This document shows positions 1,979 to 57,513 of a stretch of DNA of 64,000 nucleotides, one piece after another; within the stretch, counting starts at the first letter, position 1; each line of letters begins with the position of its first letter. The notes under the pieces were generated by a model that saw nothing but the letters and a program-made list of their open reading frames with translations, did not search any database and was not told the DNA's origin. Source of the stretch: Phycisphaerales bacterium (GTDB lineage Bacteria > Planctomycetota > Phycisphaerae > Phycisphaerales > UBA1924); NCBI GenBank assembly GCA_050730655.1, contig JBOHNL010000004.1, forward strand, positions 109,703-173,702, in the 5' to 3' direction. Both the position numbers and the translations under genes were made by a program.

Positions 1979-2106
1979 GCAAATCCCTTTGAAAGACATT
2001 TACCACGGAGACACAGAGGCACAGAGAAGAGGAAGTCGAAAACAGAGAGCAAGGCTAGGAATGGATTGCCGGAGCCGAACGCCCCGAGACGAATGCAACC
2101 GACAAA

Positions 2107-2610
2107 ACGACGACACCCCGGAGACTTTGGCTTGAGCCAACGCGTCCGGGGTGTCGTTTGGAGGAGAGAGAGGTTCGTTTGGAATCGGCGTCAGACCTGT
2201 TTGAGGCGTGCCGCCTGGTGGAGAGGAGAGAGAATTCGGTTTTCAATTCGGCGTCAGGCCAGTTGTGGCAGGGCGCCAAGGAGGAGAGGAGAGAGTTCGG
2301 AGTAATCGGCGTCAGACCCGTGCGAGGCGTGGCGCCTGGAGGAGAGAGGAGAGAGAATTCGGCGTCAGGCTCTGTGAAGCTCGGCGCCAAAGTGTTGGAG
2401 AGGAGAGAGTTTCGTGATTCGGTTTTCAGCGGCGGTCGTTCGTGTCCCGCCAAGAGAGTTGTCGGCGCAGCCGCGAACCTTGCAGCTCTGAATGAGATTT
2501 TGAAATGAATCGCGCCCCTGGCGGAATGCACTGCCCCAAAAACCACGACACCTCGGAGACTTTGGCTTGGGCCAACGCGTCCGGGGTGTCGTTTGGAGAG
2601 GAGAGAGGTC
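2107..2610. repeat. array of five ~59-nt units (polypurine GGAGAGGAGAGAG tract plus GC hairpin) bracketed by two copies of a 53-nt hairpin element; candidate ncRNA
   Basis: GA blocks lie at 2160-2173, 2219-2234, 2280-2295, 2338-2357 and 2397-2409, with a sixth at 2595-2608. GGCGTCA...GGCGCC hairpins lie at 2187-2215, 2250-2277, 2308-2336 and 2361-2388. The hairpin element at 2110-2162 matches 2545-2597 at 51/53 positions. The period of 58-61 nt is not a multiple of 3. Confidence 0.85.
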
Positions 2611-2663
2611 TGAGACGAACTGATCTAGGAGTCTTTCCGCTGACACCATTCCATACGAGCGAT

Positions 2664-2689
2664 GCCGCGGAGAGGTTCGCGGTTTTTTG
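2664..2689 (+). terminator. intrinsic terminator candidate on the plus strand, facing the lipoprotein gene
   Basis: GCCGCG-gagaggtt-CGCGGT stem followed by a run of six T. Confidence 0.5.
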
Positions 2690-2751
2690 TGCCATTCCCA
2701 CTGCCGCAGGGGCCCTTTCCTCGGCGGTTCGCACTTTGGCAGTACGGCGAT

Positions 2752-3492
2752 TCAGGGCGACTTGGAAACGATTTCCATCCTGCCATCCTTCACCAGCCCG
2801 ATGCCCGGAGCGTAAATCTTGCTCCCGCTTCCTTGCTCAAGAGGAGTCGTTTCGAACAATTTCACAGCGTTGTTGAACTTACCGACCGGTGTCAGGATCT
2901 GTTGCGAGACGCCGACCACTTCGCATCGGTCCATCGCGATGCCGGGAGCACGTTCCTGATAGAACCGGTCGCCCAGGCTCAGGACACCCGGCATCATCAG
3001 CCCGAAGCGCGCGCCGTTTTCTCCCGACTTCCACGCGCCGACATGGCCGACCCCTTGGCCGTTTCGATACAGGTCGACTTCCTCTCCGAAATAGTAAACA
3101 TCGCCCGACTCAGGATCGCAGGCAAAGAAGTTGCGAGAAACCTCCTTCACACCCCCTGAGTTCTCCTCCCTTTCTTCAACAACTCGTGTGACGACTCCGT
3201 CGACGGTTCGCGTCTCTTCCAGGACGGTGATGGTGAGTGATTCATCCCCGTCGCGAAAGGTGCTGACCGTACCGGGTTGTAACGGAAAGAACAGATTGGA
3301 GCCTGTCGACTGCAGCTTGGACTTATCGATCATGAACGCCGACCGGTATGGATCCAAGTCGGGCTTGAACAAACCAGGCTCGTCCGCGTCATACGGCTTG
3401 TACCCGCGATTGCAGGCCACAAGGACGGCAAGGCAGACGATCAGACTGACGAATCGGCGCGTGGAATCCACTCGCATGCGAGCCCCCTTCAA
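2752..3492 (-). CDS. hypothetical lipoprotein
   Basis: 246-aa ORF with signal peptide and lipobox (FVSLIVCLAVLVAC-N). No family recognised. Confidence 0.6.
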   Translation of the reverse strand: MKGARMRVDSTRRFVSLIVCLAVLVACNRGYKPYDADEPGLFKPDLDPYRSAFMIDKSKLQSTGSNLFFPLQPGTVSTFRDGDESLTITVLEETRTVDGVVTRVVEEREENSGGVKEVSRNFFACDPESGDVYYFGEEVDLYRNGQGVGHVGAWKSGENGARFGLMMPGVLSLGDRFYQERAPGIAMDRCEVVGVSQQILTPVGKFNNAVKLFETTPLEQGSGSKIYAPGIGLVKDGRMEIVSKSP

Positions 3493-3511: not shown

Positions 3512-4726
3512 TTACTGCACCTTGCCGGTTTCTTTCAAAGCGCGGATCCGTTCCGGCAGGCTCAGCAGCTTGATGAAGCCGCCGGCATCCTTGTGTTCGT
3601 AGATCTCGCCCTTTTCAAAGGTCACAACCTTCTCGGAATAGAGCGAGTTCGGGCTCTTGCGGCGGATGGCCGTCGCGACGCCTTTATACAGCCGCACCAC
3701 GATGTCGCCAGTCAGACGCTCGCTCGATTTCTGGATGCCCGCCCACAGCGTCTCGCGGTACGGGGTGAACCAACGGCCGTTGTAGACAGCTTCTGAGAAC
3801 CAGAGAGCGAGGTGTTCTTTGAAGTGGCGGGTTTCGCGATCCTGCACGAGTTCTTCTAGGCCCTTGATGGCTTCGACGAGGATCGTGCCACCCGGTGTCT
3901 CGTAGATGCCGCGGGACTTCATGCCGACGAGGCGATTTTCGACGAGGTCAACGCGGCCGACGCCGTGGACGCCGCCGATTCCGTTGAGCTTCTCGACGAT
4001 CTGCCACGCCAACATCTTCTGACCGTTCAGCGCGACTGGGCGCCCAGCCTCGAATGAGATGGTGACTTCCTCGGCCTTGTCGGGGGCGTTCTCCGGTGAC
4101 GCCGTCAGCATGTAGCAATCTTCGGGCGGGGCATTCCACGGATCTTCGATGCTGCCGCCCTCGTGGGAGATGTGCCAGAGGTTGCGGTCCCGCGAGTAGA
4201 TCTTGGTGGCGCTCGCGGTGGTCGGAATGTTGCGGGCCTTCAGGTAATCGAGCATGGCGAGACGACCGGTGAGGTTCCAGTTGTCCATGCGCCACGGGGC
4301 GATGATCTCCATCTCCGGCGCGAGCGCGGCATACGCCGACTCAAACCGAACCTGATCGTTGCCCTTGCCGGTGCAACCGTGCGCAAGCGCCGTGCAACCG
4401 AACTTGCGAGCGGCCTCGACCTGCGCCTTGGCGAGGATCGGACGCGCCATCGCGGTGCCGAGCAGATAGCGGCCTTCGTAGAGCGAACCCGCCATCACGC
4501 AGGGCATGACGAAGTCGTCGATGAACTCTTTCTTGAGATCGACAACGACGCAGTCTTTCGCGCCGGAGTCTTTGGCTTTTTTCTCGACACCGACGAGCTC
4601 GTCGGAGCCTTGACCGACGTCGCCGACGACGCCGTAGACCTCGCAGTCCATGTTTTCTTTGAGCCAGGGGATGATGACGGACGTATCGAGGCCGCCGGAG
4701 TAGGCGATAGCAATCTTCTTGGGCAT
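3512..4726 (-). CDS. argG: argininosuccinate synthase
   Basis: ORF 3512..4762. MPKKIAIAYSGGLDTSV (ATP-PPase motif) sets the start at 4726. Confidence 0.95.
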   Translation of the reverse strand: MPKKIAIAYSGGLDTSVIIPWLKENMDCEVYGVVGDVGQGSDELVGVEKKAKDSGAKDCVVVDLKKEFIDDFVMPCVMAGSLYEGRYLLGTAMARPILAKAQVEAARKFGCTALAHGCTGKGNDQVRFESAYAALAPEMEIIAPWRMDNWNLTGRLAMLDYLKARNIPTTASATKIYSRDRNLWHISHEGGSIEDPWNAPPEDCYMLTASPENAPDKAEEVTISFEAGRPVALNGQKMLAWQIVEKLNGIGGVHGVGRVDLVENRLVGMKSRGIYETPGGTILVEAIKGLEELVQDRETRHFKEHLALWFSEAVYNGRWFTPYRETLWAGIQKSSERLTGDIVVRLYKGVATAIRRKSPNSLYSEKVVTFEKGEIYEHKDAGGFIKLLSLPERIRALKETGKVQ

Positions 4727-15117: not shown

Positions 15118-15189
15118 AGCGGGCGAAGGGATTTGAACCCTCGACCTTCTCGTTGGCAACGAGACGCTCTACCACTGAGCTACGCCCGC
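15118..15189 (-). tRNA. tRNA-Gly (anticodon GCC)
   Basis: The reverse complement GCGGGCGTAGCTCAGTGGTAGAGCGTCTCGTTGCCAACGAGAAGGTCGAGGGTTCAAATCCCTTCGCCCGC folds as a cloverleaf. It has a 7-bp acceptor stem, a TTGCCAA anticodon loop and a GGTTCAAAT T-loop. No CCA is encoded. Confidence 0.92.
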
Positions 15190-56256: not shown

Positions 56257-57513
56257 CTACTTCAGCGTTTCAAGAACGTCGCGGATCTTCTTTTCGGTCG
56301 ATTCCAGATCGCCCAAAGTGATGATCGCGCGCACGATGCGGGACTTATCGAGAATAACGACGCCGCCCGGACCGCCGCCGAGGATTGGGTCGTAGTCGAA
56401 CGTCTGCGACACAGCCACCAGCGGCATGTTGTCGGGCTCACTCAAAACCGAGCTTTCGGTCGGGTCAAAAGCGGTGAGCAGAATGGACGTGATCTCGAGT
56501 TTGAGCCCTTCGGGCGGGATAATTGCGATGCTCCTCGCGATCCATCGATCCTTTGAGCCGCCTTCGAGCCGTCGCACGAGTTGTCGCGCGACACGAGTGT
56601 CACGCGACAACTCGTGCGACGCCTGATCGCGAATTTCAGGCGTGGAGTCGTCAAGCTTGCTGGTGTCAACCTGCGAAAAGACGAGAACCGAAGCGAGATC
56701 GTCTCGAACTTCTTTCCACTGCGAGAGCCCTGTAGTTAGCAGGGTCATCGTCGGAGGGAACTGTGCTCCCACGCGAACCTGATCGACTTCCGTCGTTAGA
56801 TCGGAGAGAGCGTCGACCCGCTGGCGCCCCGCGATATCGAGCATCCAAGACTCGGACTCACCCGGACTGATCGAGCGCGCGGTCATGTCGATGTTTCGGA
56901 TCGGGCCGGAAGCCGAGGCGACCTGCAGCGACGCGAGGCGTCCGGAGTTGCGATCGACCAGCATCTTCATTGTCGAGTCGCCCGATGCGCCGTTAAACAG
57001 AAGTCGGCCGGTGGGTCGATCGACAACTCCGGGCTCCCAGTGCACCTGAGCGCCGGCGGGCAGCAGTCCGAGATCGTCAAGCCGGTTGGTGCCACGATCG
57101 GCAAGCACGAGTTGGGGAAGCATGAGCGCGGGCATGACGGACTCAAGGGACGCCAAAAGAGGTCCCTTCGCCAGCGTGAACTCGGCGAAGCGATTTTTTT
57201 CCAGCCGGTGCATCGCGACCATTTTGTCGCCCTCGATGCTGATTGAAAGTTCGCCCAAATCGAATCGGGCGCGCAGCGGACCTTGATCCCCGCCCGCGTC
57301 CACTTTCACGACGATCTCAGACCGGCGCTCATGCCCGTGATCGTCTTTGACGCGAATCTGAAGGCCTTCCGCGACCGGCCCCGACCTGTACGCGCGAATT
57401 GTCTTGTCGAAAGGAACCTGCTCGACGGTCGCCTGCTGGGGAACCGGCGGCTGGGCCGGCGCCAAACTCGGAACAGAAACCAGCACAAGTCCTGCGAGCA
57501 GACACCGCACCAT
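56257..57513 (-). CDS. secreted hypothetical protein (418 aa)
   Basis: ORF 56257..57600. The ATG at 57513 gives the signal peptide MVRCLLAGLVLVSVPSLAPAQ. No family recognised. Confidence 0.6.
   Translation of the reverse strand: MVRCLLAGLVLVSVPSLAPAQPPVPQQATVEQVPFDKTIRAYRSGPVAEGLQIRVKDDHGHERRSEIVVKVDAGGDQGPLRARFDLGELSISIEGDKMVAMHRLEKNRFAEFTLAKGPLLASLESVMPALMLPQLVLADRGTNRLDDLGLLPAGAQVHWEPGVVDRPTGRLLFNGASGDSTMKMLVDRNSGRLASLQVASASGPIRNIDMTARSISPGESESWMLDIAGRQRVDALSDLTTEVDQVRVGAQFPPTMTLLTTGLSQWKEVRDDLASVLVFSQVDTSKLDDSTPEIRDQASHELSRDTRVARQLVRRLEGGSKDRWIARSIAIIPPEGLKLEITSILLTAFDPTESSVLSEPDNMPLVAVSQTFDYDPILGGGPGGVVILDKSRIVRAIITLGDLESTEKKIRDVLETLK

Follow-up and report, generated by a model that had tools for sequence, protein, structure and literature searches.

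Locus and Repeat Anatomy

The window analyzed here is a 64,000-nucleotide stretch of a Phycisphaerales genome (contig JBOHNL010000004.1), and the subject is the gap at 1979-2751 between argH and an open reading frame (ORF) for a 246-aa lipoprotein-like protein (2752-3492, minus strand). Read along the minus strand, argF is followed by argG, the lipoprotein gene, the gap and argH, with all genes pointing the same way. Below, sense refers to the strand on which the arg genes are read, the minus strand of the window, and antisense to the plus strand. The gap holds a periodic array of purine/pyrimidine blocks and hairpins, which is discussed here as a candidate locus of small RNAs (sRNAs). Its sequence is identical in three independent assemblies of the same strain. 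Consequently, the array is not an assembly artefact.

On the plus strand, the GA-block pattern GGAGAGGAGAGAG (up to 2 mismatches) occurs at 2160, 2220, 2283, 2341/2343, 2397 and 2595. The spaced GA blocks described in the original prediction are thus recovered at or near the same coordinates, including the sixth one beside the second hairpin copy. The 64 kb contain eight matches to the pattern against 1.9 expected, a count reached in 0 of 100 shuffles, and only a single weak match lies outside the gap. TRF (Tandem Repeats Finder) reports a 62-63-nt period with 3.3 copies at 2160-2362. The hairpin motif said to follow each block, (A)ATTCGGCGTCAG, is present after four of them (2183, 2246, 2304 and 2357); a hairpin of another kind (2431-2451) comes after the block at 2397. 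The claimed pairing of units 1/3 and 2/4 agrees with the identities between units: 86% for 2183 vs 2304 and 77% for 2245 vs 2356, compared with 71% for 2183 vs 2246. The large flanking hairpin is indeed duplicated, with copies at 2110-2157 and 2545-2592 that differ at 2 of 48 positions and a similarity that reaches 71 nt at 93%; no further copy exists in the window. The six GA/CU blocks, the four ~60-nt hairpin units and the duplicated 48-53-nt hairpin are confined to this gap within the window.

A Pfam search of the gap ORFs gives no match, and six-frame similarity among relatives is present in all frames of both strands. Consequently, no reading frame is preserved, and by these comparisons the gap is non-coding, as had been proposed. 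Public assemblies contain gene calls of 68-136 aa antisense to the array (L006 5722-5928, L007 5513-5872 and L218 3513-3923; L numbers denote loci of relatives). Because they have neither a Pfam match nor a preserved frame, these calls are probably annotation artefacts arising from GA-rich periodicity. The array would thus be a case in which gene callers add spurious antisense ORFs to public assemblies.

Architecture and Conservation in Relatives

Orthologous loci were obtained from exact-protein look-ups and from a search across GTDB for a degenerate pattern of the large hairpin. Relatives were compared as ~13-kb loci and the host genome as the ~64-kb window. ArgH homologues place the host in Phycisphaerales, within a tight clade of 85-94% ArgH identity, beyond which identity falls to 70% or less. 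A common architecture is found in 12 lineages: the window, L004, L006, L007, L009, L049, L059, L066, L072, L218, L219 and L223. In the sense direction, it starts with the bipartite motif GCGAAC-N17-CGTAT (P1), followed by module 1, which consists of GUCAGCGGAAAGACU, a CU block, a 13-bp hairpin (T1) and U5, and by an unconserved spacer. It continues with a second bipartite motif, TGCAAGGTT-N14-CAACTC (P2), a 5' hairpin, UGAAAACCGAA and a variable number of units, each made of a CU block, a GGCGNC...UGACGCC hairpin and an A-rich linker. A final CU block, the paralogous hairpin (T2) and then CGUUUUUG form the end. L009, L219 and L066 lack module 1. There is one unit in L006, two in L219 and L223, three in L004, L009, L049 and L218, four in the window, L007, L059 and L072, and five in L066. 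Two unit types, A and B, alternate, and their order is kept among close relatives. The parts are listed in Table 1.

Table 1. Parts of the array and of the region upstream of argH, in window coordinates.
Feature	Position	Strand	Remark
P1, promoter-like bipartite motif GCGAAC-N17-CGTAT	2653..2680	minus	ECF-sigma type; A-tract just upstream
Module 1, candidate ~110-nt sRNA	2537..2646	minus	5' end guessed
GUCAGCGGAAAGACU of module 1	2630-2644	minus	followed by variable segment
Single CU block of module 1	2595-2608	minus	
T1, putative terminator hairpin	2545-2592	minus	followed by U5 at 2538-2542
T1-P2 spacer	2485..2536	minus	unconserved; A/T-rich tract upstream of P2
P2, promoter-like bipartite motif TGCAAGGTT-N14-CAACTC(TCT)	2456..2484	minus	
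Module 2, candidate ~350-nt sRNA	2102..2452	minus	same architecture in 12 lineages
5' hairpin of module 2	2431-2451	minus	
Invariant UGAAAACCGAA of module 2	2418-2428	minus	
CU blocks of module 2 (n=5)	2397-2409, 2338-2357, 2278-2295, 2220-2234, 2160-2173	minus	
Unit hairpins of module 2 (n=4), GGCGNC...UGACGCC	2361-2388, 2308-2336, 2250-2277, 2187-2215	minus	A-rich GAUUGAAAACCGAAC-like linkers
T2, putative terminator hairpin	2110-2157	minus	paralogue of T1; U-run 2102-2109
Upstream region of argH itself	1979..2101	minus	outside the sRNA locus
-10-like TAGCCT box of argH	within 2052-2062	minus	
Three CTCYGTG repeats	2004-2027	minus	
argH ribosome-binding site AAAGGG		minus	ATG at 1978

The four-fold-degenerate sites of argH show 44-49% identity between the window and six relatives, which corresponds to saturation. 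Module 1 is 77-87% identical to the relatives, the segment from P2 to AACCGAA 75-90% and T2 79-93%, whereas the spacer between T1 and P2, at 37-50%, lies at the neutral level. Because the modules are 75-93% identical while the four-fold sites are saturated and the spacer has drifted, they are judged to be under purifying selection and not to be duplication debris.

These comparisons bear on a reading in which the array works at the level of DNA or has no function, as slippage or duplication debris, as H-DNA formed by its polypurine.polypyrimidine tracts, or as sites of a DNA-binding protein. It could draw on the variable copy number, on the lack of covariation in the unit hairpins, on the missing array in L220 and on slippage in L218, where one CU block (3577-3635) has grown to a (CT)~25 microsatellite. 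This expansion is taken to show replication slippage at the tracts together with tolerance of large length changes. Nevertheless, such an explanation is very improbable: the modules are conserved next to a drifted spacer and saturated neutral sites, compensatory changes preserve the pairing of the large hairpins, and strand-asymmetric U-runs and a G.U excess are not expected for a double-stranded DNA site.

The degenerate hairpin pattern, which matches both copies in every relative, was scanned over 185,579 species genomes, one per species. It returned 88 stretches, five of which are real and belong to Phycisphaerales/Planctomycetota genomes, with one locus per genome. The other 83 are single matches in unrelated taxa, mostly Actinobacteria, and are read as chance. 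A dispersed repeat of the REP, BIME or MITE type, which the original prediction had named as a possible refutation together with an array unconserved in close relatives, is rejected on this count of one locus per genome, a count that strongly diverged copies may escape; the array itself is kept in the clade. Among the matches listed for a metagenome scan with the unit pattern, nearly all are chance occurrences in GC-rich DNA. The real ones are L109, from the contig that also carries L007, and L186, with a gap that resembles that of L007 by eye. More distant relatives have no array at L226 (59%-identical lipoprotein homologue), L222 (69% ArgH identity) or L220 (87% ArgH identity).

Predicted Structure and Terminators

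T1 and T2 fold into a 13-bp outer stem and an inner stem, followed by CGUUUUG or GGUUUUUGG, with a minimum free energy (MFE) of -29 to -40 kcal/mol. With a GC-rich stem-loop and a U-run on the minus strand, both have the features of putative Rho-independent terminators. A simple terminator scanner misses them owing to an internal mismatch and the long inner stem. Among the large hairpins (n=16), five base pairs are changed on both sides, a number that none of 500 shuffles reaches, and slid controls pair in 35-50% of cells. The helix of the 5' hairpin of module 2 is likewise kept with differing stems (GGCGG/CCGCC, GGGUG/CACCC, GGUGC/GCACC and CGGG/CCCG).

When the predicted module-2 RNA of six lineages is folded with a partition function, the CU blocks remain largely accessible, with an unpaired fraction of 0.82-0.93 vs 0.34-0.44 for the rest. 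The loops of the unit hairpins read CGCAC, CAAAC and similar. RNAalifold predicts a helix of the CU block with the 5' GCGGAAAGA of module 1, in which all pairs are invariant and none is supported by covariation. If GGUU of P2 paired with AACC of UGAAAACCGAA in the RNA, the helix would have only 4 base pairs, all of them invariant, and this pairing was set aside.

Probable Transcribed Strand and Promoter-Like Motifs

The assignment of the strand is based on the pattern of G.U versus A.C cells and on flanking signals, and not on MFE alone; the large hairpins have similar energies on both strands. In the 8 nt after the large hairpins, the number of T is 5.2 in the sense direction (run of 4.7, 19 of 19 hairpins) vs 1.9 in the antisense direction, where the flank is variable (TTTGG, CTTCG, CATGG, CACTG). 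The T runs noted earlier behind both large hairpins on the minus strand are therefore a conserved feature. Paired cells amount to 95.2% sense vs 89.0% antisense in the 16 large hairpins and to 86.7% vs 80.8% in 31 unit hairpins. There are 66 sense-only G.U cells, spread over 12 pair positions, and 26 antisense-only ones at 3 positions, counts in which the G.U and A.C cells are phylogenetically non-independent.

Both bipartite motifs lie upstream of conserved RNA-like parts in the sense direction. The boxes of P1 are invariant and its 17-nt spacer varies in sequence in all nine lineages with module 1. Within the window, its exact sequence is found at no other place, and among the first 222 fetched loci only those bearing module 1 have it. 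In P2, TGCAAGGTT is invariant, the 14-nt spacer is variable and the downstream box reads [GC]AA[CT]TC in all 12 lineages; among the same 222 loci, the motif is found at the array locus only. Because invariant boxes with a variable spacer of fixed length are the signature of a protein site with two contacts, P1 and P2 are described as promoter-like. Promoters of the extracytoplasmic function (ECF) class have a -35 box of the form ..AAC, a -10 box CGTA or CGTC and a spacer of 14-17 (PMC5758882). P1 fits this definition and is a putative ECF-sigma promoter. A canonical sense terminator follows argG in L004, L009, L072, L218 and L219, with P1 or P2 just after it. In L009 and L219, P2 begins 10-17 nt past this terminator, and because it follows so directly, the arrays of these two lineages need a start of their own. 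From these signals, the locus is probably transcribed on the minus strand.

Two other promoter readings were rejected. GGCAC-A5 upstream of P1 could be taken for a sigma-54 site, with a GG-N11-GC spacing that is one off the consensus, and GCCGATTG in the units could be taken for a FliA-like site, with the wrong spacing. Between the lipoprotein stop codon and P1, the short blocks CCAAAGTGCGAA, GGAAAGGGC and GGCACAAAAA look conserved by eye (window 2686-2751 vs L007 5182-5250), although neutral sites are saturated. They could serve P1 as an activator site or as an upstream promoter element.

The opposite direction had been put forward in the original prediction, which compared the array to CsrB and RsmZ. 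Here, a GA-rich plus-strand RNA would end at 2664-2689 and sponge CsrA or bind Hfq via (AG)n. The plus strand carries ~12 GGA motifs, and the unit hairpins are stabler on it (summed MFE -445 vs -376 kcal/mol) because pair 5-25, a C.A mismatch on the minus strand, reads U.G there. Moreover, small antisense hairpins with T-runs stand at the P1 edge, distal for such an RNA, in the window, L007 and L004, and a plus-strand transcript could end at them. However, these hairpins are built from non-homologous sequences, and their frequency is like that of the scanner's hits in shuffles. The plus-strand terminator claimed at 2664-2689 exists as a pattern of hairpin and T6, of which 2 are found there vs 1.4 expected; it is not conserved in relatives and overlaps the -35 box and spacer of P1. 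No conserved promoter-like motif points in the plus direction, and past T2 there is a single conserved box, which goes with argH where the array is missing. No conserved T-run follows the large hairpins on the plus strand, the G.U vs A.C cells favor the other strand by 66 to 26, and no match to CsrB, RsmY or RsmZ is found at E <= 10. Since U-runs, promoter-like motifs and G.U cells all point to the minus strand, such a CsrA- or Hfq-binding plus-strand RNA is improbable.

Relation to argH

The original prediction offered two starts for argH. The longest ORF spans 599-1999 and starts at 1999 (MSFKGICMALWGG). The start that is conserved lies instead at the ATG of 1978 (MALWGG), at which all relatives and the NCBI protein of the metagenome-assembled genome (459 aa) begin. 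The former start is accordingly abandoned and the latter retained.

The array lies immediately before argH and runs the same way as the arg genes in 11 of the 12 lineages. In the remaining one, L066 (GCA_044221315.1), argG, the lipoprotein gene and an array of 5 units with T2 are followed by a convergent 334-aa ORF. In the same assembly, argH is located on another contig (L221), behind a tricorn-protease gene. This argH keeps a CCATTCCTAATCTT box (TAnnCT, -10-like), the CTCCGTG repeats and the TTGAAAGG ribosome-binding site without an array upstream. In all other lineages, these elements are found between T2 and argH. The array is separated from argH by a strong predicted terminator and by a -10-like box, TAGYCT, that is conserved. 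In L220 (3961-4000), argG and argH are 40 nt apart with no array, and because this gap is so short, the whole candidate sRNA locus is an insertion/deletion polymorphism at this site within the clade. The CTCYGTG repeats between the conserved CCATTSCTAGYCTT box and TTGAAAGG occur in 3-4 copies with a period of 8-12 in the window, L004, L006, L007, L218 and L221, and in L221 the whole block has stayed with argH. The repeats may control argH, either as an operator or at the level of RNA.

A minus-strand cis-acting leader or attenuator, in which a factor on the CU tracts modulates T1 and T2 and thereby controls read-through from argG, P1 or P2 into argH, would account for the co-directional position in 11 of 12 lineages and for two serial terminators before the gene. 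It is quite improbable, because L066 has an array without argH downstream, and L220 and L221 have argH without an array, so that the array is not an obligate argH leader. In addition, the sense strand offers no purine-rich antiterminator partner for the CU tracts, except GCGGAAAGA in module 1. The long argH leader suggested earlier is therefore not supported, and argH has a conserved upstream region of its own.

Proposed Model and Mechanism

The favored reading, to which we assign about an even chance, is that the array is a clade-specific locus of two tandem minus-strand sRNA genes with paralogous terminators, whose CU tracts pair with mRNAs. Module 1 (~110 nt) would start downstream of the ECF-sigma-like P1 and carry one CU block. 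Module 2 (~350 nt) would start downstream of P2 and contain the 5' hairpin and then ~60-nt repeats, in each of which a small hairpin and an A-rich linker are joined to a CUCUCCUCUCC tract of 11-20 nt. Both sRNAs would share a 3' end in which a CU block precedes the 13-bp GC-rich hairpin and U-run of a Rho-independent terminator. The 5' ends are predicted at ~2645-2650, 6-10 nt after CGTAT, and at ~2450, after CAACTCTCT, and the RNAs would terminate within the U-runs (2538-2542 and 2103-2108). The CU tracts would pair with purine-rich GGAG/GAGG, for example in the ribosome-binding sites of target mRNAs. Module 2 could act either as one multivalent RNA or as ~60-nt units cleaved in the A-rich linkers, in the manner of CcsR1-4. 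In this scheme, we infer transcription, promoter activity, RNA ends, processing and target class.

The tracts (CUCUCCUCUCC, often CCUCC-ended) resemble the anti-Shine-Dalgarno (anti-SD) sequence of 16S rRNA (CCUCC). Some genes in these loci are SD-led, with GGAG/AGGAGG or GGAGA before the start codon. A hypothetical gene of 229-239 aa, two genes beyond argH, outside the window and with extra paralogues in L006, has a conserved GA-rich 5' untranslated region (UTR) of the form GAGGAGAGTTnGnAATAGGAGGTTTGAGA-ATG (L001 6321-6350, L004 9941-9970, L006 8429-8458 and 9706-9735). Within it, GAGGAGAG is a perfect 8-nt complement of CUCUCCUC, with no extended pairing. It is possible that this gene is an sRNA target.

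Several results weigh against the two-sRNA reading, in addition to the stabler unit hairpins and the P1-edge hairpins of the plus strand and the non-independence of the counted cells. The unit hairpins (31 distinct) are paired in 86.7% of cells with zero pairs changed on both sides; since there are no compensatory pairs, their fold is argued from conservation and energy only. Among the GA stretches of the window outside the array, none complements more than ~8-10 nt of a CU block. No sigma-70-like promoter was found on either strand, and P2 matches no sigma consensus known to us.

As the main alternative mechanism for the same minus-strand RNAs, the CU tracts could titrate a pyrimidine-tract RNA-binding protein of the KH, S1, cold-shock-domain, Hfq or Rho kind. 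The principle would be that of CsrB, with CU taking the place of GGA. Each RNA offers 2-7 regularly spaced, accessible, near-identical single-stranded tracts. The free valency range of 1-5 units and the (CU)~25 tract in L218 would be tolerable for a titration platform, and no extended mRNA target was found. On the other hand, the closeness of the tract to the anti-SD sequence offers a simpler explanation through pairing. We know of no global bacterial regulator titrated by CU-tract RNAs, and a literature search for one found none. A protein sponge is accordingly regarded as rather unlikely.

The idea that module 2 is an abundant, valency-tunable decoy is equally doubtful. Here, its 2-7 anti-SD-like tracts would sequester SD-led mRNAs in bulk, in competition with the 16S 3' end, or titrate a pyrimidine-tract regulator. 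The capacity would be set by gain and loss of units and by expansion of the CU microsatellite, and transcription of the short paralogue would depend on an ECF sigma factor responding to the envelope or to stress. If true, this would represent a CsrB-like design with opposite motif polarity in Planctomycetota.

Neighboring Gene and Other Features

The lipoprotein-like ORF at 2752-3492 has no match in its own Pfam search. Its family is large, with 1,858 matches at E <= 1e-10; these come from Phycisphaerales as well as from other phyla, and some members carry PF21347. The gene stands between argG and the array in the window, L006, L007, L066 and L223 only. Elsewhere in the window, a 16-nt repeat with 2.1 copies (CACGAGTTGTCACGCGA) is located at 56575-56609.

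Comparison with Known RNA Families

The whole window was searched against Rfam at the gathering score, and the gap, L007 and L066 at E <= 10. At the gathering score, the sole match in the window is a tRNA gene at 15118-15189 (minus strand, 76 bits). The gap, L007 and L066 give only chance-level miRNA and frameshift matches and a sub-threshold match to ar14. The absence from known RNA families foreseen in the original prediction is borne out by this covariance-model (CM) scan, and because the gap of the window has no Rfam match, the candidate RNA locus is uncatalogued. A literature search for a similar sRNA in Planctomycetes found none, and we know of no characterised sRNA regulator in Planctomycetota. 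The locus is a clean candidate for a new RNA family of known regulatory design.

A CRISPR array was also considered and rejected: whole ~60-nt units are 71-86% alike, including the would-be spacers, and no CRISPR model scores above threshold.

CsrB/RsmY/RsmZ and CrcZ resemble the array in that repeated short single-stranded motifs alternate with hairpins and the number of motifs varies between relatives. However, on the favored strand the motif here is CU-rich and not GGA or CA-rich, and there is no Rfam match. The sRNAs with C-rich seeds, such as RsaE/RoxS, the UCCC-motif sRNAs of S. aureus and RepG of H. pylori, occlude ribosome-binding sites. They share with the array an accessible pyrimidine tract beside a terminator hairpin, complementary to G-rich SD regions. 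In contrast, they have 1-3 short motifs, usually in loops, without a tandem ~60-nt array, and there is no similarity in sequence or CM.

The nearest known design is that of the cuckoo RNAs, grouped here with ar14 and CcsR. They consist of 2-4 adjacent hairpins with CCUCCUCCC in each loop (PMC4615179). CcsR1-4 are arranged in tandem behind an RpoHI/HII promoter and in front of one terminator, and are processed by RNase E (PMC4615179, PMC8034643). The ar14 model (RF02344) matches the sense strand of L007 with 25.9 bits (E ~0.01; gathering score 58.8). Of all matches in the two relatives scanned at E <= 10, which were L007 and L066, no other has E < 1. Membership in cuckoo/ar14/CcsR was rejected, given a score below gathering, a first stem that is unformed (non-standard pairs throughout) and a window without a match at E <= 10.

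The array is nevertheless like cuckoo/CcsR in its modular adjacent hairpins with a repeated anti-SD-like CU motif (CCUCCUCCC there, CUCUCCUCUCC(UCC) here), in its variable number of modules and in its tandem copies behind one stress-type promoter with one Rho-independent terminator, both of them putative here. The likeness is one of design only, with 1-5 units between P2 and T2 in the 12 lineages here. The systems differ in that the CU tracts lie between the hairpins here and in the hairpin loops there, in that cuckoo/CcsR belong to Alphaproteobacteria and no DUF1127 gene is a neighbor here, and in that the ~60-nt tandem units here are still recognisably alike in DNA. The natural series of 1-5 units, together with one microsatellite expansion, provides a ready-made test of valency versus sRNA function. 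An anti-SD-like modular design that parallels cuckoo/CcsR without detectable homology suggests convergent evolution.

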